A stretch of 64,000 nucleotides of DNA from Hypanus sabinus (lineage: Eukaryota): the NCBI RefSeq assembly GCF_030144855.1, contig NC_082725.1:46128001-46192000 (forward strand). The letters run 5' to 3'. How positions within the stretch are numbered: the stretch's first letter is position 1; each line of letters begins with the position of its first letter. The translations under genes were made by a program, and so were the position numbers. Shown piece after piece: positions 610-54,999 of the stretch. The notes beneath the pieces were generated by a model that saw only the letters and a program-made list of their open reading frames with translations, was not told the DNA's origin and did not search any database.

Positions 610-2612
610 AGTCAGAATCACTTATAATTTCATTGGCATATGTTGTGAAATTTGTTGCTTTGTGGTAGCAGTACAAAATAATAAAAACAAACTATAAATT
701 ACTATTAAGAAATGTAAATGGGGAAAAAAGAGAAAAAATACTGAGATAGTGGTCATGGGTACATTGTCCATTAGGAAATCTGATGGCGGTGGGCAACAAA
801 CTGCCCCTGAAACACTGAGTGTGTGTTTTCAGACACCTGTACCTCCTTCTTGATGGCAGCAATGAGAAAAGGGTGTACCCTGGGTGATGGGGGTCCTTAA
901 TGATGGATGCCGCCTTGTTGGAGCATTGCCCTTTGACAGTGCTGGGGAGGCTAGTTCCAGTGATGGCACTGGCTGAGTTTATAACTTCCTGCAGTCTGTT
1001 CTGATCCTGTGCAGAGGTCCGAACATGCCAGATGGTGATGCAGCCAGTTAGAATGCTCTCCATGCTACACCTGTAGAAACTTGCAAGTCTTTAGTTATAT
1101 ACCAACTCTCCTCCAGCTCCTTATCAAATATAGCCACTATCATGCCTTCTCTGTAATTGCATGTATGTTGTTCCCAGGATAAGTTGTCAAAGATGTTGAT
1201 ACCCAGGAATATGAAACTGCTCATCATCTCTCGAGGAGGACTAGTATGTGTTCCCTTGACATCCCCTTTGTGAAGTCCACAATCAATCCTTGATCTTACT
1301 AACGCTGAGTGCAAGGTTGTTGTTGCAACACTACTCAACCAGCTGATCTATCTCACTCCTGTACGCTTCCTCATCATCATTTGAAATTCTGCCAGTAATA
1401 GTTGTGTCAAAGGCAAATTTATAGTTGGTGTTTGAGCTGTGCCTAGCCACAGTTGTGGGTACAGAAAGAGTAGGGAAGTGGGCTGAGCACACATCCCTGA
1501 GGTGCGCCAGTGTTGATCGTCTGCGAGAAGGTTATGTTATTTCTGATCTGCACTTACTGTGAGGAAGTCAGGGATCCATTTGCAGAAAAAGGTAGAGGCC
1601 CAGGTTTTGGAGCTTGATTAGAACTGAGGGTATGATTTTGCAGAATGTTGAGATGTAATCAATAAACAGTAGCCAGATGTAAGTACTACTATAATCCGAG
1701 CTCAGGTGCCGAGCCAGTGAAATTGTATCTGCTGTAGACCTATTATGGCAGTAGGCAAATTGCAGCAGATCCAAGTCCTTGTTTAGGCAAGAATTGCTTC
1801 TGACCACGACCGACCTCTTAAAGCACTTCATCACAGTAGATGTGAGTACAACTGGGTGATAGTCATTGAGGCAACTCACTCAGCTCTTCTTGGGCACTGT
1901 CACCCTTTTGAAGTGGTTAGAAATCTCCGACTACAGCAGTGAGAAATTGAAGCATTCCTTGAACACTCCTGCCAAATGGTCAGCACAGGTCTTCAATTCC
2001 CCACCAGGTCCTCTTCAGGGCCTGTCAGCTTGAAGGGGTTCACCCTCTTGAAAGATGTCCTGACCTCGGCCTCCAAGACAGAGATCACAAGGTCACCTAA
2101 TGATTTGCATAGATGTAGCTTTATTTTCCCTTTCAAAGTGTGCAGAGAAGGCATTGAGCTCATCTGGGAGTGAAGCATCACAGCCATTCATAACATTAGG
2201 TTTCACCTTGTAAGAGGTAATGCCCTACAAACCCTGCCAGAGCTGACGTGCGCCTGATTCCATCTCAAATCTCTATTAGAATAGTTTTTGCGCTCTTAAA
2301 ATAGCCTTCCGTAGCTTGTATCTGGACTTCCTGTACAATTCTGGATCACTGGCCTTGAATGCCACAGACAGAGCCCTCGGCACTCTATGAATCTCTTGGT
2401 TCACGTATGGTTTTTGAGTTGGGTGTTAGGCATGTTCTCAAAGGTTCCCACTCACCCACGCAGGTCTTGATGAAATCGGGGACAACTGCTGTGTATTCAT
2501 TCATTTTCAAAGATGAGTCCCTGAATATTGTCCAGTCCACCAACTCAAAACAGTCTTGCAAGTGCTCTTCCACCTCCCTGGATCATACCTTTTTGGTCCT
2601 CACCACTGGTGA
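610..2612 (-). mobile_element. Degenerate Rex1/Babar-type LINE fragment
   Basis: Fragments LQDCFELVDW, LNDYHPVVLTSTVMKCF, LQFAYCHNRSTAD, HPGYTLFSLLPS. Confidence 0.75.
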
Positions 2613-4005
2613 ACGGTCTCCCCCGTAATCTATTGGAGATCCTGGAATAAGCGAAGCTGAAATAGCCCCAAAACTACAGTGTCATCAAGATAACAGCAGA
2701 CCAAACTAATTACCTTAAGTAAATCAAATGCACATTGCAAGAGCTCCAAAATCCCAAATTTATTAAATTTACTTTAAAATTTATCAATTGAAGATGTTCA
2801 TACATAAATGATGATTGCACCAGTTTTAAACATAGTATTATTAAATATAGCACTTTTTCTCAATTACTAAATACTGCTTCAATAGCATATTCATCAGAAA
2901 GTGAGGATAAAAAACATACAAAAATCTGCAACACCAAGATACTACCGATATCGACCTGCTGTAATTGCCCAGAAACTCAAGTATAAGAAACTGGAACTGG
3001 TATTGCTATCCTTGAACCTGCTCCAATATTCATCAAAATCGCGACTGTCTTTTAGCTCAGTGTTAATTTCCAGAATAACACCCATATACACTGATTCCCT
3101 TAATGTCCATAAATCCATCCATCCTTTGAACGAACACAATGAGTGAGCTCCAGGTAGAGAATTCTGAAGATTCATCACCTTTAAAGTAAAAAAAACTTCT
3201 CATCTCCGTCCTAAACAGCTTAACACTTATTCTATATATGCCATCGATGTACAAACTCAACAAGGGGCCTTGGCAAAACTAAATCTTTTAAAAAATATAT
3301 ACAGTATATTAAAAAGATCAGGACATCAGTAGCACAGCAATTAATATTTCTGCTAATAAATGAAACATTCCAGGAACACCGTAGCAAAATTCTGAGAAAT
3401 GACGAAGAAGGCATTTCCTTTCCATTGAAAAGTGGCTTTCTTTCATCTTTTTATTATGAATTACGAAATTTGAGTCATCAAGCTCTTTTTCTGTGACTGC
3501 TTTTAAAAACCTTCTGAAAATCCATCCATTCAAGTAAGCTTCTGATTACCCAATCATATCTCCCACTTCACAGCTCATTATCCTTTGCCGTTTCCACATC
3601 CCCCTGGTGTTAAGTCACAAACCTGGACCACTGACTTTATCGATATGTTGAACCCTGCTGAGTTTTTCCAGTATTACCCGTTTTTGTTCCAGATTTCCAG
3701 TATCTGAATTATTTTGCTTTCTCTCCAAAACCATGGGACAAACCGATCTCTCCAAATATTTGATAGACCCTGGCTTTGAAATATACTGATCACCGTTTTT
3801 GCATCACAGTTCTTAAATTCTACTTGGGGAACAGGGTTTACGTGGTGCACATTGAACCTCTGGTCATTTGAGTTTGGTAGTAACAGCCACATCATGATTT
3901 GTAAATATAAGTTTGGAATATAGGAAATAGGGTTCTGTAAACGTATGGCAAAATCCATACACATCAACGAGACAACACAAATTTTATTGGGAACAAAGGA
4001 CAGAC

Positions 4006-4203
4006 TGTAGTGGAGTGCTACACGCAGCGCTAAAATTACGACACGGAGTCGGTAACTGCAGTCGAAGGAAAAAAAACTTTATTCGAAATCCTCAGCCTCA
4101 CTTTTAAGCCTCCCTCAAAGGCTCCAAATCTCTGTGCTTGCAAACCCCCGTAGGCTATCTAATTGTGAGCCGGTTCGGATGTGCCAGGAATTGGGTTGCC
4201 ACA
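4006..4203 (-). repeat. 3' LTR of CsRN1-like element (198 bp)
   Basis: Direct repeat with a 20-bp deletion relative to the 5' LTR; preceded on the minus strand by a G-rich PPT. Confidence 0.93.
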
Positions 4204-7200
4204 TAACCGCCCCCCAGAACCGGCGATACACCCCCCAATGTCCACAGTCTGGGCCAGAACCTGCTTGGGAGGTTGGCCTCTGCGCCGAGGTGCCGGAAAC
4301 TCGGCCGGTTGTGCCAGGTCCACATGGGCCGGTTTGAGGCGGTCCACCGTGAAAACCTCCTCTTTCCCCCCAACGTCCAGCACGAACGTGGACCCGTTGT
4401 TCCGGAGCACCATAAATGGCCCCTCGTATGGCCGCTGCAGCGGTGGCCGATGCCCGCCCCTTCGTACAAACACAAACTTACAGCTCTGCAGGTCTTTGGG
4501 TATGCAGGTCGGGTTCCGCCCGTGCTGTGAAGTGGGTATGGGGGCCAGGTTACCGAGCTTCTCGCGTAGTCTGCCCAGGACTGCTGCAGGATCTTCCTCT
4601 TGCCCCTGTGGGGCTGGTAGGAACTCCCCGGGGATGACCAGGGGCGCGCCGTATACCAACTCGGCCGACGAGGCATGCAGGTCGTCCTTGGGCGCTGTGC
4701 GGATGCCGAGTAGGACCCAGGGAAGCTCGTCCGCCCAGTTGGCTCCTCGCAGGCGGGCCATGAGGGCTGACTTCAGGTGACGGTGGAAACACTCCACTAG
4801 CCCGTTCGACTGTGGGTGGTAGGCAGTTGTGTGGTGCAGCTGAGTCCCCAAAAGGCTGGCCATAGCTGACCACAGGCTGGAGGTGAACTGGGCGCCTCTG
4901 TCAGAGGTAATGTGGGCTGGTACACCAAAGCGAGATATCCAGGTGGTGATCAGGGCTCGGGCGCAAGATTTGGAGGTGGTGTCGGTGAACGGGACAGCCT
5001 CTGGCCATCTTGTGAACCAGTCCACGATAGTCAGGAGGTGCCGCGCTCCGCGTGACACTGGCAGGGGGCCCATGATATCCACATGAATGTGGTCGAAACG
5101 CCGGTGGGCGGGATGGAACTGCTGCGGTGGGGCTTTGGTGTGCCGCTGCACCTTGGCCGTCTGGCAGTGCATGCACGTTTTGACCCATTCACTGACCTGT
5201 TTGCGGAGTCCGTGCCAAACGAACCTGCTGGAAACCATCCGGACAGTCGTCCGGATGGAGGGATGCGCCAAGTTATGAATGGAGTCGAAAACACGGCGCC
5301 GCCTGGCTGTCGGGACGACGGGACGGGGCTGGCCGGTGGTGACGTCACAGAGTAGGGTCCTCTCACCCGGGCCTACGGGGAGGTCCTGGAGCTGCAAACC
5401 AGAGACCATGGTTCTGTAACTCGGAATCTCCTCATCCGCCTGCTGCGCCTCTGCCAGTGCCTCAAAGTCTACCCCTTGGGAAAGGGAATGAACGGTAGGG
5501 CAAGAGAGCGCATCCGCCACGACATTGTCCTTACCCGAGACGTGCCGGACATCCGTCGTGTATTCAGAGATGTAGGACAGGTGGCGTTGCTGGCGGGACG
5601 ACCAGGGGTCTGACGCTTTCGTAAACTCAAAGGTAAGCGGTTTTGTGGTCCGTGAAGGCGGTGAAGGGCCGACCTTCTAGGAAGTACCTGAAATGCCGGA
5701 TTGCCAGGTAGAGCGCCAACAGTTCCCGGTCGAAAGCACTGTACTTGAGCTCGGGTGGCCGCAAGTGTTTGCTGAAAAACGCCAGGGGTTGCCAGCGACC
5801 TGCGATGAGTTGCTCCAGCACCCCACCGACTGCCGTGTTTGATGCGTCCACTGTGAGGGCGGTAGGGGTGTCCATTCTGGGATGTACTAGCATTGCGGCA
5901 TTCGCCAAAGCTTCCTTCGTTTGAACGAAAGCGGCCCCAGGTAATGTCCTTGCTCGGACCCGACATCAGGGCGAACAGGGGGCGCATGATCCGGGCAGCT
6001 GAAGGGAGGAAGCGGTGGTAGAAATTGACCATACCTACGAATTCCTGAAGGCCTTTGATCGTGGTGGGTCGGGGGAAGTGGCGGACCGCATCTACCTTAG
6101 CGGGCAGAGGGGTTGCCCCGTCTTTAGTAATCCTGTGGCCCAGGAATTCAATGGTATCGAGTCCAAACTGGCATTTGGCGGGGTTGATTGTAAGACCGTA
6201 CTCACTCAGTCGGGCGCAGAGTTGACGGAGGTGGGACAGATGCTCCTGACGACTGCTGTTGGCTATGAGGATGTCGTCCAAATAGATGAACGCGAAGTCC
6301 AGGTCCCGTCCCACCGTCTGTGCGGCATTCTTCAGGCTGAACGGCATGCGGAGGAACTCGAAAAGGCCAAATGGGGTGATGAGAGCCGTTTTGGGGACGT
6401 CGTCAGGATGCATCGGGATTTGATGGTACCCTCGGACGAGGTCTACCTTGGAGAAGATCTGTGCGCTGTGCAGGTTTGCTGCAAAGTCCTGAATGTGCGG
6501 CACAGGGTAGCGGTCCGGTGTGGTAGCCTCGTTCAGCCTGCGGTAGTCGCCGCATGGTCTCCAGCCTCCCGTCGCTTTGGGCACCATGTACAGGGGAGAG
6601 GCCCATGGGCTGTCGGACCGCCGGATGATCCCCAATTCCTCCATCCTCTGGAACTCCTCCTTCGCCTGTCGGAGCTTGTCTGGGGGAAGCCGCCGAGCGC
6701 AGGCGTGAAGGGGTGGCACCTGGGTCGGGATGTGGTGCTGTACGCCGTGTCTGGGCATGGCCGCTGTGAACTGCGGTGCCAGACCCGATGGGAAATCCGC
6801 CAGGACCCTGGTGAAGTCGTTGTCAGACAGCGTGATGGAGCCGAGGTGAGGGGCTGGCAACTGGGCTGCACCCAGGGAGAACGTCTGAAAGGTCTCGGCG
6901 TGTACCAGTCTTTCCCTGGGCAGGTCGACCAGTAGGCTGTGAGCCCGCAAAAAATCCGCACCCAGAAGTGGTTGGGCTACGGCGGCCAGTGTAAAGTCCC
7001 ACGTGAACTGGCTGGAGCCGAACTGTAGCTGCACCTGACGGGTGCCATAGGTCCTTACTGTGCTGCCGTTCATGGCCCTCGGGGGGGACCCAGTGCCCTG
7101 CTGCGGGTGTCGTAACTCGTCGGAGGTAAAACGCTGATCTCGGCACCAGTATCGACCAAAAACCGGCGTCCCGACCTTCTGTCCCACACATACAGGAGGC

Positions 7201-7255
7201 TATCCCGATGGCCAGCCGCCATAGCCATCAGCGGCGGCTGGCCCTGGCGTTTCCC
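4159..7255 (-). pseudogene. pol: Disrupted pol (PR DTGAEIS, RT YLDD, RNase H, HHCC/DDE integrase with GPF)
   Basis: Split over ORFs 7070-7438, 5469-7187, 5627-5908 and 4159-5520; frameshifts near 7085, 5935 and 5640; in-frame RT deletion ([10 protein letters not shown]). Confidence 0.9.
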
Positions 7256-7917
7256 GGGAACTTGCAGGGCGGGTGACAACGGCAGGCTTCTGCGCCCCAC
7301 CGCTGGTGGTAGAAGCACCAGTGTTCCTTGGGCTGGGGGTTGGCGGGCTCTGTGGCCGGGCCTGGACTGGTTTGCTGCTGGGAGCGTGGCTGGGAGATCT
7401 GTGCGATGGACGCCCCGCTCACCTTTTTGGCGTTCCACAGCAAGTCCGCCCGGGCTGCCACCTTCCGGGGGTCACTGAAATCCGCGTCGGACAGCAGCAG
7501 GCGTATGTCCTCGGGCAGCTGCTCCAGGAATGCCTGCTCAAACATGAGGCAGGGTGTGTGTCCGTCGGCGAGAGACAACATCTCATTCATTAAAGCCGAT
7601 TGAGGTCTGTCGCCCAAGCCATCCAGGTGCAGTAAACGGGCAGCCCGCTCGCGCCGTGAGAGTCCGAAAGTCCTGAGGAGCAGGGCTTTGAATTCCGTGT
7701 ACTTGCCGTCTGCCGGGGGCGACTGTACGAACTCCGCGACCTGGGCCGCTGTGTCCTGGTCGAGGGAGCTCACCACGTAGTAGTAGCGGGTGTCTTCTGA
7801 GGTGATCTGGCGAACTTGGAATTGGGCTTCGGCTTGCTGGAACCATAGGTCCGGGCGCTGTGTCCAGAAACCTGGCAGTTTCAACGAAACCGCATGAACA
7901 GAGGCGGCGTCGGTCAT
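7228..7917 (-). CDS. gag: Gag of CsRN1-like element
   Basis: MTDAASVHAVSLKLPGFW...CFYHQRWGAEACRCHPPC; open frame, CHCC motif. Confidence 0.85.
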   Translation of the reverse strand: MTDAASVHAVSLKLPGFWTQRPDLWFQQAEAQFQVRQITSEDTRYYYVVSSLDQDTAAQVAEFVQSPPADGKYTEFKALLLRTFGLSRRERAARLLHLDGLGDRPQSALMNEMLSLADGHTPCLMFEQAFLEQLPEDIRLLLSDADFSDPRKVAARADLLWNAKKVSGASIAQISQPRSQQQTSPGPATEPANPQPKEHWCFYHQRWGAEACRCHPPCKFPGNARASRR

Positions 7918-7942
7918 TTCTGGTCCAAAAATCGTTTGGACC

Positions 7943-7955
7943 GTCGGGGTCACCA
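7943..7955 (-). other. Primer-binding site TGGTGACCCCGAC (complementary to tRNA-Trp 3' end)
   Basis: Begins 2 nt after the 5' LTR; sequence typical of CsRN1-clade PBS. Confidence 0.85.
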
Positions 7956-7957
7956 AT

Positions 7958-8177
7958 TGTAGCGGTGTGCTACACGCAGTGCTAAAATTACGACACGGAA
8001 TCGGTAACTGCAGTTGAAGGAAAAAAAAAACTTTATTCGAAATCCTCAGCCTCACTTTTAAGCCTCCCTCAACCTGCCCCCCCGTGGCGCAGAGGCTTCA
8101 AAGCTCAGTGCTCGCAAACCCCCGTAGGCTATCTAATTGTGAGCCGGTTCGGATGTGCCAGGGAATGGGTCGCCACA
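7958..8177 (-). repeat. 5' LTR of CsRN1-like element (220 bp)
   Basis: Direct repeat of 4006-4203; adjacent to the PBS. Confidence 0.93.
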
Positions 8178-13025: not shown

Positions 13026-14760
13026 TTGAATAACTACTTTGGTTCTGTCTTCACTAAGGAGGACATAAATAATCTTCCAGAAATAGTAAGGGACCGAGGG
13101 TCTAGTGAGATGGAGGAACTGAGGGAAATACATGTTAGTAGGGAAGTGGTGTTAGGTAAATTGAAGGGATTAAAGGCAGATAAATCCCCAAGGCCAGATG
13201 GTCTGCATCCCAGAGTGCTTAAGGAAGTAGCCCAAGAAATAGTGGATGCATTAGTGATAATTTTTCAAAACTCCTTCAATTCTGGATTAGTTCCTGAGGA
13301 TTGGAGGGTGGCTAATGTAACCCCACTTTTTAAAAAAAGGGAGAGAGAAACCGGGGAATTATAGACCGGTGAGTCTGACATAGGTGGTGGGGAAAATGCT
13401 AGAGTCGGTTATCAAAGATGTGATAACAGTACGTTCGGAAAGAGGTGAAATCATCGGACAAAGTCAGCATGGATTTGTGAAAGGAAAATCATGTCTGACG
13501 AATCTTATAGAATTTTTTGAAGATGTAACTAGTAGAGTGGATAGGGGAGAGCCAGTGGATGTGGTATAATTTAGATTTTCAAAAGGCTTTTGACGAGGTC
13601 CCACATAGGAGATTAGTGTGCAAACTTAAAGCACTCAGTACTGGGGGTATGGTATTGATGTGGATAGAGAATTGGTTGGCAGTCAGGAAGCAAAGAGTGG
13701 GAGTAAACGGGACCTTTTCAGAATGGCAGGCAGTGACTAATGGGGTACCGCAAGGCTCAGTGCTGGGACCCCAGTTGTTTACAATATATATTAATGATTT
13801 AGACAAGGGAATTAAATGCAGCATCTCCAAGTTTGCGGATGACACGAAGCTGGGCAGTGGTGTTAGCTGTGAGGAAGATACTAAGAGGATGCAGGGTGAC
13901 TTGGATAGGTTAGGTGAGTGGGCAAATTCATGGCAGAGTCAATTTAATGTGGATAAATGTGAGGTTATCCACTTTGGTTGCAAGAAGAGGGAAACAGATT
14001 ATTATCTGAACGGTGGCCGATTAGGAAAAGGGGAGGTGCAACAAGACCTGGGTGTCATTGTACACCAGTCATTGAAGCTGGGCATGCAGGTACAGCAGGC
14101 GGTGAAAAAGGCAAATGGTATGTTGGCATTCATAGGAAAAGGAATTGAGTACCGGAGCAGGGAGGTTCTACTGCAGTTGTACAAGGCCTTGGTGAGACCG
14201 CACCTAGAGTATTGTGTGCAGTTTTGGTCCCCTAATCTGAGGAAAGACATTCTTGCCATAGAGGGAGTACAAAGAAGGTTCACCAGATTGATTCCTGGGA
14301 TGGCAGGACTTTCATATGAAGAAAGACTGGATCGACTAGGCTTATACTCACTGGAATTTAGAAGATTGAGGGGGGATCTTATTGAAACGTATAAAATTCT
14401 AAAGGTATTGGACAGGCTAGATGCAGGAAGATTGTTTCCGATGTTGGGGAAGTCCAGAACGAGGGGTCACAGTTTAGGGATAAAGGGGAAGCTTTTTAGG
14501 ACCGAGATGAGGAAAAACTTCTTCACACAGAGAGTGGTGAATCTGTGGAATTCTCTGCCACAGGAAACAGTTGAGGCAGGTTCATTGGCTATATTTAAGA
14601 GGAAGTTAGATGTGGGCCTTGTGGCTGAAGGGATCAGGGAGTATGGAGAGAAAGCAGGTACAGGGTTCTGAGTTGGAAGATCAGCCATGATCATACTGAA
14701 TGACGGTGCAGGCTCGAAGGGCCAAATGGCCTACTCCTGCACCTATTTTCTATGTTTCTA
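13026..14760 (+). mobile_element. Young 5'-truncated CR1 LINE (RT FADD), nested in an older CR1
   Basis: ORF 13559-14671 with [23 protein letters not shown]; 3' UTR ending in a TTCTATG-like microsatellite; few disruptions. Confidence 0.92.
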
Positions 14761-51225: not shown

Positions 51226-51503
51226 CTACTTCTGCCAGCCAGCAGCAGCAAGAGAAACCAGTCAAATGCAGGTAGATGGCATTAAGCTCCCTGTTCATTT
51301 TCGCTTCTTGTCCTCGACAATTTTAATCTTGGTCAACGCTTTACTTGGAGCAGAGCAATGGGTTCGACCACGGGTTCATGTTCCGCCATTAGGAATCGAC
51401 ACAGAATTGCACCCATGTCGAATGCCCCAGGATATCACAGAAGTGCCAGATAGTTCAGTTGGCTCAAAAATTCATTCTTGGAAGCAAAATTACAGGCTGC
51501 AAT

Positions 51504-51715
51504 TGTGGTGAACTATGTGCCTGTCGGGACACGCCCCTGCTGACTGCTCCTGTGGCTCCTCCCACAGGCCCCTGTATAAAGGAGACCTGCGGCCTGAAGA
51601 TCGGCCTCAGTCTCCAGGACCTTGTATGATAGACACTCACTCCTGGTTCCTTCTTCCAGTCAATAAAAGCCGATATCTCGCCTACGTCTCAGTGTGAGTT
51701 ATTGATGGTGCATCA
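51504..51715 (+). repeat. 5' LTR (TATAAA 51575, AATAAA 51662)
   Basis: Base-for-base identical to 54199-54410 on manual comparison. Confidence 0.95.
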
Positions 51716-51744
51716 ATTTTATTGACTGGAAGAACCTTCGCTAC

Positions 51745-54153
51745 ATGAGGAGCAGGAGGTACAGCGCGGGGGACCGGGCCTTCATTCAGTCGGAGGTGCA
51801 GCGGCTGCTCAGGGAGGGGATCATTGAGCCGAGCACAAGCCCTTGGAGGGCCCAGGTGGTTGTTGTTCGGACTGGGCAGAAAAATAGGATGGTGGTGGAC
51901 TATAGTCAAACCATCAATAGGTTTACGCAGCTTGACGCATACCCCCTACCCCGCATCGCGGATATGGTCAACCAGATTGCTCAGTATAAGGTGTACTCGA
52001 CAATAGATCTGAAATCCGCTTATCACCAGCTCCCCATCTGCCCAGAGGACCGCCCCTACACCGCCTTCGAGGCGGGCGGCCGGCTCTATCACTTCCTGCG
52101 CGTCCCTTTCGGTGTCACGAATGGTGTCTCTGTCTTCCAGAGGGAAATGGACCGGATGGTGGACCAGTACCAACTGCAGGCCACATTTCCCTATCTGGAT
52201 AACATCACCATCTGTGGTCATGACAGGCCAGATCACGACGCCAACCTCCAACGGTTTCTCCAAGTGGCCGCAGCTCTGAACCTTACTTATAACAGGGACA
52301 AGTGTGTGTTTGGTACCACCCGTCTTGCTATACTTGGGTATGTCGTGGAAAACGGGGTTATTGGCCCTGATCCCGAACGTATGCGCCCCCTGTTAGAGCT
52401 CCCTCTTCCCACCACTCTCAAGGCCCTCAGACGGTGCCTGGGGTTTTTTTCCTATTACGCCCAATGGGTCCCCCATTACGCAGACAAGGCCTGCCCCCTG
52501 GACAAGTCTACCTCGTTTCCCCTCTCTGCTGAGGCCTGCGCGGCCTTCAACTGCATTAAAGCGGACATTGCCAAAGCTACGATGCATGCAGTGGACGAGA
52601 CCGCTCCCTTCCAAGTGGAGTGTGATGCCTCCGATTTCGCTCTGGCTGCTACCCTTAATCAGGAAGGCAGACCAGTAGCATTCTTTTCTCGCACCCTCCA
52701 AGGCTCTGAAATTCGGCACTCCGCGGTGGAGAAAGAAGCCCAGGCCATAGTGGAGGCTGTTAGGCACTGGAAGCACTATCTTGCTGGCAAAAGATTCACT
52801 GTGCTGACCGACCAGCGCTCGGTTGCGTTCCTGTTCAGCAACCAACAGCGGGGCAAGATCAAAAATGATAAGATTTTGCGGTGGAGGATAGAACTCTCCA
52901 CCTACACCTATGATATCCTGTACCGGCCTGGCAGACTCAATGAGCCCCCTGATGCCCTATCCCGGGGAACATGTGCTAGCACACAGCTCGACCAGCTGTA
53001 CGCCCTTCATGCACAACTTTGCCATCCGGGGGTCACCCGATTTTACCATTTTGTGAAAGCTCGGAACCTGCCGTACTCCCTGGAGGACATCAGGACGATG
53101 ACCAGGGACTGCCAAATTTGTGCCGAGTGCAAACCGCACTTCTACTGTCCTGACACGGCACAACTTGTCAAGGCCACCCGCCCTTTTGAACGCCTGAGTG
53201 TTGACTTTAAGGGCCCCCTTCCCTCCACTGACCGCAATGTCTATTTTCTCAGTGTTATTGACGAGTTCTCACGGTTCCCCTTTGCCATCCCCTGCCCCGA
53301 CACCACTGCCACGTCCGTCATAAAAGCCCTGCGCCAGCTCTTCACTCTGTTCGGGTATCCCTGCTATATCCACAGTGATAGAGGGTCCTCCTTTATGAGT
53401 GAGGAGCTGCGCCAGTACTTGCTAGCTAGGGGCATTGCTACCAGTCGGACCACGAGTTATAATCCCCGGGGTAATGGCCAGGTAGAGCGGGAGAATGCCA
53501 CAGTGTGGAAGGCCACACTTTTAGCCCTCAAGTCCAAAGGGTTGCCGGTCTCTCGATGGCAGGAGGTCCTCCCTGAGGCACTGCACTCTATCCGCTCTCT
53601 GTTATGTACGTCCACCAATGCCACCCCTCACGAACGCCTATTCTCTTTTCCCAGGAAGTCTGTCACTGGGACCACCCTACCAGTTTGGCTGACGTCCCCG
53701 GGGCCAGTGCTGCTCCGGAAACATGTGAGGAGCAATAAATACTCCCCGCTGGTGGAGAGGGTTCACCTTCTCCATGCGAACCCCCAGTATGCTTACGTGG
53801 TCTTACCTGATGGGCGGGAGGACACGGTCTCCATCCGCGACCTGGCACCCGCAGGTGCAGCAGACCACTACCCTGAAGGCTCTCCGGTAACTGTGAACCC
53901 TGCACCAGAGGTGACACCGTACTCACCAGGCCCTACACAGACTCCTCACGACACTTGTATACCGGGCGTTTCGTACGCATTTATACCAGGCGCCTCGCAC
54001 ATGCATGAGGGATCACCGGCGCCTAGTGGGCAAGAACACGCGCAACCCCCGTCCCCTGTGCAATCGCCAATGTTGCCGGCACCTATGCGGTCACAGCCGG
54101 TGCTACGTAGATCGCAGCGACAGATTCGACCGCCTGATCGGCTTGACTTGTAA
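51745..54153 (+). CDS. pol: Uninterrupted RT-RNaseH-integrase ORF (802 aa)
   Basis: RMVVDY, YPLP, DLKSAYHQ, PFGV, YLDN; RNase H CDAS...EKE...TDQ; HHCC; D(FKG)...D(RG)...E(REN). Confidence 0.9.
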   Translation: MRSRRYSAGDRAFIQSEVQRLLREGIIEPSTSPWRAQVVVVRTGQKNRMVVDYSQTINRFTQLDAYPLPRIADMVNQIAQYKVYSTIDLKSAYHQLPICPEDRPYTAFEAGGRLYHFLRVPFGVTNGVSVFQREMDRMVDQYQLQATFPYLDNITICGHDRPDHDANLQRFLQVAAALNLTYNRDKCVFGTTRLAILGYVVENGVIGPDPERMRPLLELPLPTTLKALRRCLGFFSYYAQWVPHYADKACPLDKSTSFPLSAEACAAFNCIKADIAKATMHAVDETAPFQVECDASDFALAATLNQEGRPVAFFSRTLQGSEIRHSAVEKEAQAIVEAVRHWKHYLAGKRFTVLTDQRSVAFLFSNQQRGKIKNDKILRWRIELSTYTYDILYRPGRLNEPPDALSRGTCASTQLDQLYALHAQLCHPGVTRFYHFVKARNLPYSLEDIRTMTRDCQICAECKPHFYCPDTAQLVKATRPFERLSVDFKGPLPSTDRNVYFLSVIDEFSRFPFAIPCPDTTATSVIKALRQLFTLFGYPCYIHSDRGSSFMSEELRQYLLARGIATSRTTSYNPRGNGQVERENATVWKATLLALKSKGLPVSRWQEVLPEALHSIRSLLCTSTNATPHERLFSFPRKSVTGTTLPVWLTSPGPVLLRKHVRSNKYSPLVERVHLLHANPQYAYVVLPDGREDTVSIRDLAPAGAADHYPEGSPVTVNPAPEVTPYSPGPTQTPHDTCIPGVSYAFIPGASHMHEGSPAPSGQEHAQPPSPVQSPMLPAPMRSQPVLRRSQRQIRPPDRLDL

Positions 54154-54198
54154 GAACCTTCGCTACATGAGGACTTTTTCAAACGAAGGGGGGGTGAA

Positions 54199-54410
54199 TG
54201 TGGTGAACTATGTGCCTGTCGGGACACGCCCCTGCTGACTGCTCCTGTGGCTCCTCCCACAGGCCCCTGTATAAAGGAGACCTGCGGCCTGAAGATCGGC
54301 CTCAGTCTCCAGGACCTTGTATGATAGACACTCACTCCTGGTTCCTTCTTCCAGTCAATAAAAGCCGATATCTCGCCTACGTCTCAGTGTGAGTTATTGA
54401 TGGTGCATCA
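54199..54410 (+). repeat. 3' LTR
   Basis: Identical to the 5' LTR; followed by the TSD. Confidence 0.95.
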
Positions 54411-54999
54411 GCAATTAATCGTGGCTCAGAAGAAGTACATTTGGCAGAAGAGTATTCCGTATAATTGCAGGCTGTCTGCAAGATGTTGCATTTGGTCATT
54501 GGTGCCATTTTGTTGAAAGTCTTGCTTGTATTACATTATTTGAATTTAACTGAACGTACCTTCAGCTGAATTCTGCTATAAATATTTTTTAAAGCTGTTA
54601 ACTCGGTCTATTATGAAATTAAAAGGAAAATTTTATATCACACAATTTTAGAAAGAATTTTGTGTTTTTTTTTCAAGTCTAAGGTCCAGTATAATTCATG
54701 TACCTGAAATGAAATTCCCAAGTAATTATATCTATTGATTAACCAGTAAATCTGGGAGGGATTCCTTTTTGTATATTTATTTGAACAGCCAAAACTAAGT
54801 TAAACATCTCTTTACAATTGAATGGGAATAACTATGCTTTACTCTCCTATACACTTCCTTGAACAACTCATAAAATATTTTATTTTAATAATGAGATGTT
54901 TCCAACAAAATATTTTTTAAAAACCTGAACATCTGCAGTAAAACCTGCCTCAGAAAGTTAAAAGGGTATATGTACATGGGGGTGGGGCGTTGGGTCAGA

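Follow-up and report, generated by a model that had tools for sequence, protein, structure and literature searches.

Self-priming of reverse transcription has been shown experimentally for Tf1 and is treated as a mark of the Tf1/sushi chromoviruses. In Tf1, the RNA's initial 11 bases pair with the PBS (primer binding site) and are cut off by RNase H, as described in the available passages of three papers (PMC7175516, PMC10085805, PMC4600332). Besides, the plant Tcn1 (Gypsy) and TAR/Houba/Osr-1 (Copia) lineages have been predicted to self-prime, the criterion being at least 10 bp of LTR complementarity starting 0–5 bp past the 5' LTR (passages of PMC6317226). The element considered here occupies positions 51504–54410 of the window (the whole 64,000-nt stretch of Hypanus sabinus DNA that was analysed), and the site next to its 5' LTR pairs with a segment of that LTR, which we call the arm.

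Architecture of the element and of the arm–PBS duplex

The element lies on the forward strand between two copies of a GCAAT target-site duplication (TSD; 51499..51503 and 54411..54415). Its 212-bp 5' LTR (51504..51715), which begins with TG and ends with CA, is 100% identical to the 3' LTR (54199..54410), and a polypurine tract (PPT, 54185..54198) adjoins the latter. The frame in between (51751..54153) encodes RT, RNase H and integrase (Pfam RVT_1, RT_RNaseH and rve), with the RT/RNase H chain 4ol8 and Ty3-G Gag-Pol as the best PDB sequence matches. LTRs, TSD, PPT and domain order identify the element as a Ty3/Gypsy LTR retrotransposon. In the RT active site (window 51956-52250) the motif YLDN replaces YXDD, as it does in several relatives.

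Gag and protease are absent from the window copy, as seen both in the Pfam scan and by mapping on a full-length copy. Natural full-length copies measure 4,467 bp and carry a single gag-pol ORF of 1,323 aa, which starts with an ATG 9 nt downstream of the PBS and encodes, in order, zf-CCHC, protease, RT, RNase H and integrase. Aligned with one of the 4,467-bp natural copies, the stretch 51751..54153 matches positions 1808-4467 at 99.4% identity. In order, the window copy comprises the LTR, the PBS with two bases added, roughly 17 nt from the 3' UTR, and the sequence from RT onward. Mapping on the natural copy places the rearrangement junction at 51733..51751, where two extra LTR-complementary bases and the short 3' UTR piece, part of a 25-nt repeat shared with 54149-54173, precede the jump to the RT start. 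The window copy is a young internal-deletion derivative. A two-part system, composed of gag-less and pol-less elements, was rejected because natural full-length single-ORF copies exist.

Two further elements were noted in the window. An older Gypsy element of another lineage lies on the minus strand (4006-8177), with LTR pieces 91-100% alike and broken frames; it has an ordinary TGG PBS 2 nt past its 5' LTR and hence offers a tRNA-primed control in the same window. A fragment of a non-LTR (LINE-type) reverse transcriptase frame at 13529-14671 presumably resembles CR1/L2.

The sequences TTCTTCCAGTCAATAAAA (51651-51668) and TTTTATTGACTGGAAGAA (51717-51734) are exact reverse complements with 48 nt between them, and the former recurs in the 3' LTR at 54346-54363. 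As originally predicted, the site after the 5' LTR has no TGG start: the second sequence begins 1 nt past the terminal CA of the LTR (51715). Together with an arm whose 3' end points into U5, this gives the duplex the polarity expected for self-priming, which was likewise anticipated. The predicted length of 18 nt holds for the window copy, where the complement is exact, but not for the family, in which PBS and duplex comprise 16 nt. The PBS accordingly spans 51717..51732, and its complement, the arm, spans 51653..51668 (second copy at 54348-54363), includes an AATAAA at 51662-51667 and covaries with the PBS; it would form the 3' 16 nt of the putative self-primer. In the window the 16-nt core occurs three times, in both LTR arms and the PBS, against 0.06 occurrences expected and with three reached by 0/100 shuffles. 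Folding of 51600-51760 with RNAfold, as suggested beforehand, placed the helix in both the MFE and the centroid structures (z -2.4), and 3/200 shuffles folded equally well.

Upstream of the arm, a TATAAA box (51575..51580), which is seen in all 33 LTR arms examined, precedes the 16-nt arm by 78 nt, and an initiator-like TCAGTC (51607..51612) points to a predicted transcription start at about 51609 (LTR position 106). A hairpin with a CCAGGA/TCCTGG stem is predicted in the MFE fold at 51614..51646 and may constitute the 5' part of the putative primer; a hairpin of shifting register is likewise predicted 5' of the arm in most copies folded. The loop between arm and PBS (51669..51715), which consists of a GCC motif abutting the arm followed by the remaining R/U5, would template minus strong-stop DNA. 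A self-cleaving ribozyme was dropped as a candidate because the loop measures merely 24-68 nt and because Rfam matched no ribozyme.

In the genome, the 18-mer occurs 16,044 times, mostly in LTRs, and the PBS is carried by 2,215 LTR–PBS junctions; among the first 100 of these listed, 94 run with TTTT... into a short leader before gag, and six continue with AAGG, which is complementary to more of the LTR. The normal PBS of the family is therefore 16 nt. The 17th and 18th pairs of the window copy sit at its rearrangement junction, with a 5-nt microhomology (AAGAA) to the 3' UTR of the element, so that the two extra nucleotides are attributed to the rearrangement in this copy lacking gag and protease. 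No junction among those listed leaves the leader at the end of the PBS without first adding AA, and the extra bases in such copies are therefore unlikely to be due to chance. Complementarity extends past the PBS in 301 junctions, corresponding to 6-14% of junctions depending on the count used.

Covariation of arm and PBS in subfamilies and distant relatives

Other PBS cores are carried by 582 copies in the Hypanus sabinus genome. Thirty of these variant-core copies were fetched, of which three had no scorable arm and 27 were scored. At the variable positions, the PBS paired with its own arm at 7/7 sites in 18 of the 27 copies, compared with 26 of 580 cross-pairs, and at least six variable positions were paired with the own arm in 23 of the 27.

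Among proteins, the nearest ones carry the label Hypanus sabinus, at up to 99%. Other relatives bear the names Mobula, Scyliorhinus, Actinostola and Porites, and the labels thus cover rays as well as one shark, one sea anemone and one coral. A metagenome scan yielded 80 loci with 42-67% protein identity. The gag-start motif was found in 21 of them, one being too close to the contig end, which left 20 assessable 5' junctions; 18 of these show a perfect leader–LTR duplex of 11-19 bp, each matched by 0/100 shuffles. Of the two misses, L180 has a PBS that by eye matches the last 12 contig bases in the 3' LTR, and L184 showed no leader–LTR pairing in the junction test. Five more loci were inspected by hand: three have 11-12 pairs, and the two others, near-identical, are cut too short, though one of them later gave 11 pairs including one G-U. 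In the remaining 54 of the 80 loci no 5' junction was identified. Two related loci, L209 and L210, are one compensatory pair apart. A search of viral contigs for relatives gave none that was confirmed, and two relatives labelled as bacterial integrases from metagenome-assembled genomes (P0016, P0063) probably represent animal DNA in those bins.

From these sources 18 family representatives were taken, 15 metagenomic and three from the Hypanus sabinus genome, all selected for having an arm. On average, 11.8 of the first 12 positions pair with the family's own arm versus 7.5 with that of another family, at least 11 pairs being reached in 15 of 306 cross-pairs, and positions 7-9, 11 and 12 show several pair types. 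The edges of the duplex vary little: the arm ends with TAAA in 17/18 families and is followed by RCC in 17/18, and the PBS starts with TTT in 17/18 and with ATT in one. Pairing between arm and PBS is hence kept while the letters change, both within the genome and in distant relatives, which is the outcome that the original prediction had named as its check.

These data bear first on the possibility that a host tRNA, a tRNA fragment or another small RNA primes at this site and that the LTR match is incidental. Priming by tRNA is indeed the rule for LTR elements (passages of PMC6317226). However, the PBS lacks TGG, at least 18 different PBS sequences each track their own LTR, and Rfam finds nothing at gathering level in 51480-51800, the one match there being at chance level (E 0.72) and belonging to no ribozyme or tRNA family. 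A single tRNA or host RNA would not be the source of so many PBS sequences, since no host RNA can follow them all, and this explanation, largely refuted by the covariation, appears extremely improbable.

The composition of the arm bears on another explanation, in which the duplex serves regulation by concealing the poly(A) signal of the 5' LTR, a different primer is used, and the rearranged copies described below are side effects of an inverted repeat. An AATAAA lies in the helix of the present family, AATAAA or ATTAAA lies within the arm in 10/18 families, and the PBS adjoins only the 5' copy of the arm, all of which would suit masking. On the other hand, the arm holds no AWTAAA in 8/18 families, two of which have one in the unpaired loop, and the partner always begins exactly 1 nt past the LTR, a position that priming and integration impose and that masking would not require; nor was another primer site seen, the ATG following 9 nt after the PBS. 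We thus regard masking as the sole function of the duplex as quite unlikely. As a secondary role, perhaps beside priming, masking is possible, and we rank it second because AWTAAA falls within the arm in 10/18 families only.

Rearranged copies and the ends of the putative primer

Of the 301 junctions with extended complementarity, 100 were listed and 90 of these copies were fetched, giving 35 of class 1, 53 of class 2 and two that fit neither. The short class is undercounted, because the ten copies left out are mostly further short-type or duplicate cases. Class 1 copies are read-throughs, with an intact 5' LTR and PBS followed by inverted LTR sequence. In element orientation, class 2 copies consist of LTR 1-165, a T, inverted U5 and then a jump; two such junctions were re-read by hand.

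The 35 class 1 copies end at LTR 143-148 (12 copies), 131 (1), 95-109 (6), the LTR start (9) or past the PPT (7), with end positions accurate to about 5 nt (for example, 103 or 96 in L120 and 95 or 107 in L143). Six of the seven mid-LTR ends thus fall within 95-109 (binomial P 1e-5) and five of seven within 97-109 (P 2e-4). In 32/33 LTRs, the first T of TATAAA is followed at a distance of 33-34 nt by an Inr-like motif, which together with that box predicts a start at LTR ~106; the TCAKTY initiator consensus is given in the available part of PMC3601003. The six ends at 95-109 are what would be expected if an attached primer had been copied up to its cap. In one copy (L108), LTR plus read-through to LTR 107 is flanked by an 8-bp host duplication instead of one of 5 bp, which fits one end without an integrase site.

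A second start site, together with a primer of Tf1 size (about 20 nt), would likewise account for the 12 ends at 143-148. In a strictly Tf1-like manner, the RNA would start just before the arm (LTR ~146-148) and the primer would be the first ~18-20 nt of the transcript; if microhomology is allowed, none of these 12 of 35 read-throughs needs more than about 4 extra bases, and alternative start sites are described for Tf2 in the passages available from PMC5341516. Against this reading stand the TATAAA box and the Inr-like motif, kept in 32/33 LTRs and placing the start 44 nt upstream of the arm, as well as the six read-throughs that end near the start so predicted. Moreover, the hairpin predicted to end at LTR 143-148 would likewise stop RT there. 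We therefore consider a primer of this kind unlikely, and favour a longer one that would begin at the upstream initiator.

Class 2 copies relate to the other end of the putative primer. Their 53 ends lie at 169-212 in 24 cases (none at 169-174), at 158-168 in 16, at 150-157 in 6, at 110-149 in 5, at 95-109 in 1 and below that in 1. The peak at 158-168, at the arm edge, is significant against a uniform distribution (P 4e-8) and within 150-208 (P 0.007). An uncut template would give run-off at the start site, whereas a template cut at the arm edge would give the observed peak. The pile-up could also arise from a stall on entry into the duplex rather than from a cut end. Nor would one cut at AAAA|GCC lead to the several junctions that enter the arm by 3-7 nt without help from microhomology. 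We set aside the acceptor junctions at LTR ~162-168 as a sign of cleavage, given that switching out and back again would place them at the same position. Smaller pile-ups of inverted-U5 ends were observed at LTR 175-186 (five at 180), which may reflect the poly(A) site or a pause of RT, and at 115-121 (four). Retrocopies whose poly(A) tail follows LTR ~180-194, or else the arm directly, were searched for by sequence with 0 matches each, and no poly(A) tail appeared among the loose ends listed from four contig sets aligned to the 3' LTR.

The distribution of class 2 ends also bears on a primer made by trimming an RNA 3' end back to the duplex, be it that of the 3' LTR copy in the genomic RNA or that of short capped LTR transcripts that arise by premature polyadenylation and act in trans, with the template left uncut. 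It would agree with the arm ending on a poly(A)-like hexamer, with the seven read-throughs that run on via U3 and PPT into internal sequence and with the predominance of LTRs among the genomic 18-mers, and short LTR transcripts would also account for ends at the start site. Nevertheless, an uncut template predicts strong-stop DNA reaching the start site, whereas among the 53 inverted U5 pieces a single one ends at 95-109 and 16 stop at the arm edge; besides, a second jump to the 3' R explains the long read-throughs equally. This, too, seems an improbable route. The prediction that the primer could come from either LTR copy is accordingly narrowed: the 5' LTR copy fits better and the 3' copy less well, because the read-throughs end near the predicted start while inverted U5 pieces rarely reach it (1/53).

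A 5-bp TSD with at most one mismatch flanks 24 of the 30 class 2 copies that have both ends in view, 15 copies being not scorable. Six solo LTR palindromes of ~380-400 bp, composed of a whole LTR, one A and inverted LTR 165-1 (L072, L123, L129, L152, L154, L164), carry perfect 5-bp TSDs, implying that both of their integrated ends are U3 ends. These TSDs indicate that the forms arose before integration and are neither assembly errors nor later inversions.

Further features of the rearranged copies were recorded. The RT start (natural copy ~1805-1850, window 51751 onward) is a recurrent target of template jumps in both orientations (L065, L070, L105, L132, L156). Right after PBS read-throughs, a motif AAGAA(A/C)CTTC recurs (window 51730-51751 and 54152-54173, with similar letters in L071, L081, L155 and one further listed match); in the window copy it derives from the 3' UTR just upstream of the PPT, and jumps into it could yield TRIM-like miniature elements. 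One locus (L093, G000:C1:64884100-64893500) is a tandem array of full-length copies with shared LTRs at a spacing of 4,255 bp, resembling the integrase-independent tandems known for Tf1/Tf2 (available passages of PMC11042837).

Proposed priming mechanism and comparison with known systems

The proposal of self-priming is supported by the covariation and by rearranged copies that read from the PBS into the LTR arm. The duplex has a fixed position and polarity, covaries, and was engaged during reverse transcription; from this we infer cleavage and priming. That some form of self-priming operates is very probable. For its specific form, judged from sequence data, we favour with a probability of roughly 0.6 a Tf1-like process in a clade without chromodomain, with a capped primer of ~60 nt that would be cut near AAUAAAA|GCC.

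Transcription would start at the initiator predicted 33-34 nt past TATAAA, at ~51609, so that the arm would lie at RNA nt ~45-60, where its pairing with the PBS is seen by sequence and covariation. The RNA is then likely cut near AAUAAAA|GCC, either right where the helix has its 3' edge or slightly within it, by a few bases, the RNase H of the element being the probable cutter by analogy with Tf1. The capped ~60-nt piece would stay on the PBS and prime a minus strong-stop DNA of ~50 nt, which would transfer to the 3' end via the short stretch between cut and poly(A) site. The primer presumably remains attached, such that plus-strand synthesis sometimes reads past the PBS into it; read-through of this kind likely made the 18-nt match in the window as well as several hundred inverted or deleted copies. 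However, a 16-bp inverted repeat of any kind can bring about template switching and make plus strong-stop DNA fold back; the rearranged copies therefore bear witness to pairing of the arms during reverse transcription and not to a covalently attached primer. Likewise, Ty3 is said, in the available part of PMC7472051, to inherit its PBS without copying of the primer, and covariation therefore need not stem from primer copying.

More tentatively, and at less than even odds, we suggest that a widespread non-chromoviral animal Gypsy clade has evolved a substitute for tRNA: a capped RNA of ~60 nt whose 5' part is folded and which is released from the genomic RNA by a cut at the poly(A) hexamer's edge. 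A single helix would then conceal the 5' poly(A) signal and also define where the primer terminates at its 3' end, and both primer ends would be mapped by hundreds of integrated read-through intermediates. If self-priming operates here, a clade without chromodomain and with thousands of copies in one vertebrate genome would represent a distinct and highly successful instance of it. Neither the supply of tRNA nor silencing by PBS-directed tRNA fragments would then affect it. The internal position of the paired part raises the question of what cuts an RNA–RNA duplex ~60 nt from the cap, and also whether the same helix controls the choice of poly(A) site. Moreover, the rearranged copies predict both primer ends exactly and may offer a general route from genome assemblies to priming mechanisms, while annotation tools that demand a tRNA PBS may miss or misjudge the clade.

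With Tf1/Tf2 of Schizosaccharomyces pombe, Tj1 and the Tf1/sushi group, the element shares the Ty3/Gypsy domain order, a PBS complementary to its own 5' LTR, the lack of a tRNA site and the requirement that cleavage where the duplex ends liberate a 3' OH, as far as these are set out in the passages available from PMC7175516, PMC10085805 and PMC4600332. In contrast to the Tf1 primer, which is the first 11 nt of the RNA, the paired arm is here predicted to lie ~44 nt past the start, measures 11-19 nt and terminates in a poly(A)-like hexamer, after which comes RCC. Pfam scans of the window ORF (E<=0.001) and of three full-length proteins (E<=0.1) detected no chromodomain. Three duplexes form a 'pretzel' around the PBS in Tf1/sushi elements; here an RCC...GGY arrangement after the arm is found in 15/18 families, but the helix right after the arm beats shuffles at P<0.05 in only 4/18. 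Given the missing chromodomain, a primer that is probably not the extreme 5' end and an unproven pretzel, we keep the element out of the Tf1/sushi group.

The clade agrees with the sequence criterion applied to plant Tcn1 and TAR, although hosts and lineages differ, and the passages available on these (PMC6317226) offer no evidence based on rearranged copies and none pointing to a long primer. Features shared with the Mag lineage and related non-chromoviral animal Gypsy elements (A/B/C clades, Cigr-1 and MolGy clades; available parts of PMC6238403) are short LTRs, a single gag-pol ORF and marine animal hosts. The available main text of that paper makes no mention of a PBS or of self-priming for Mag-related clades, and neither of the two motifs searched is present in its readable supplements. 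No published description of priming in this clade was found within a search to which most subscription journals and the Repbase reports were external. Two Cys-His knuckle-like motifs are visible in the Gag of relatives, and Pfam gives one weak zf-CCHC match; tandem Cys-His knuckles in Gag are a trait of the Mag lineage, to which the element may be related. To these comparisons the present locus contributes the correction to 16 nt, the covariation among subfamilies, and rearranged copies that would place both ends of the putative primer.

If the favoured reading is right, the process also resembles the tRNA priming of retroviruses and most LTR elements, in that a primer of tRNA size would pair only by its 3' 16 nt and carry a folded 5' part. 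In tRNA priming, m1A58 of the tRNA stops plus-strand synthesis; here no modified base would do so, and read-through would thus be common. Unlike a tRNA, finally, such a primer would be element-encoded and bear a cap, having been cut out of the element's RNA.
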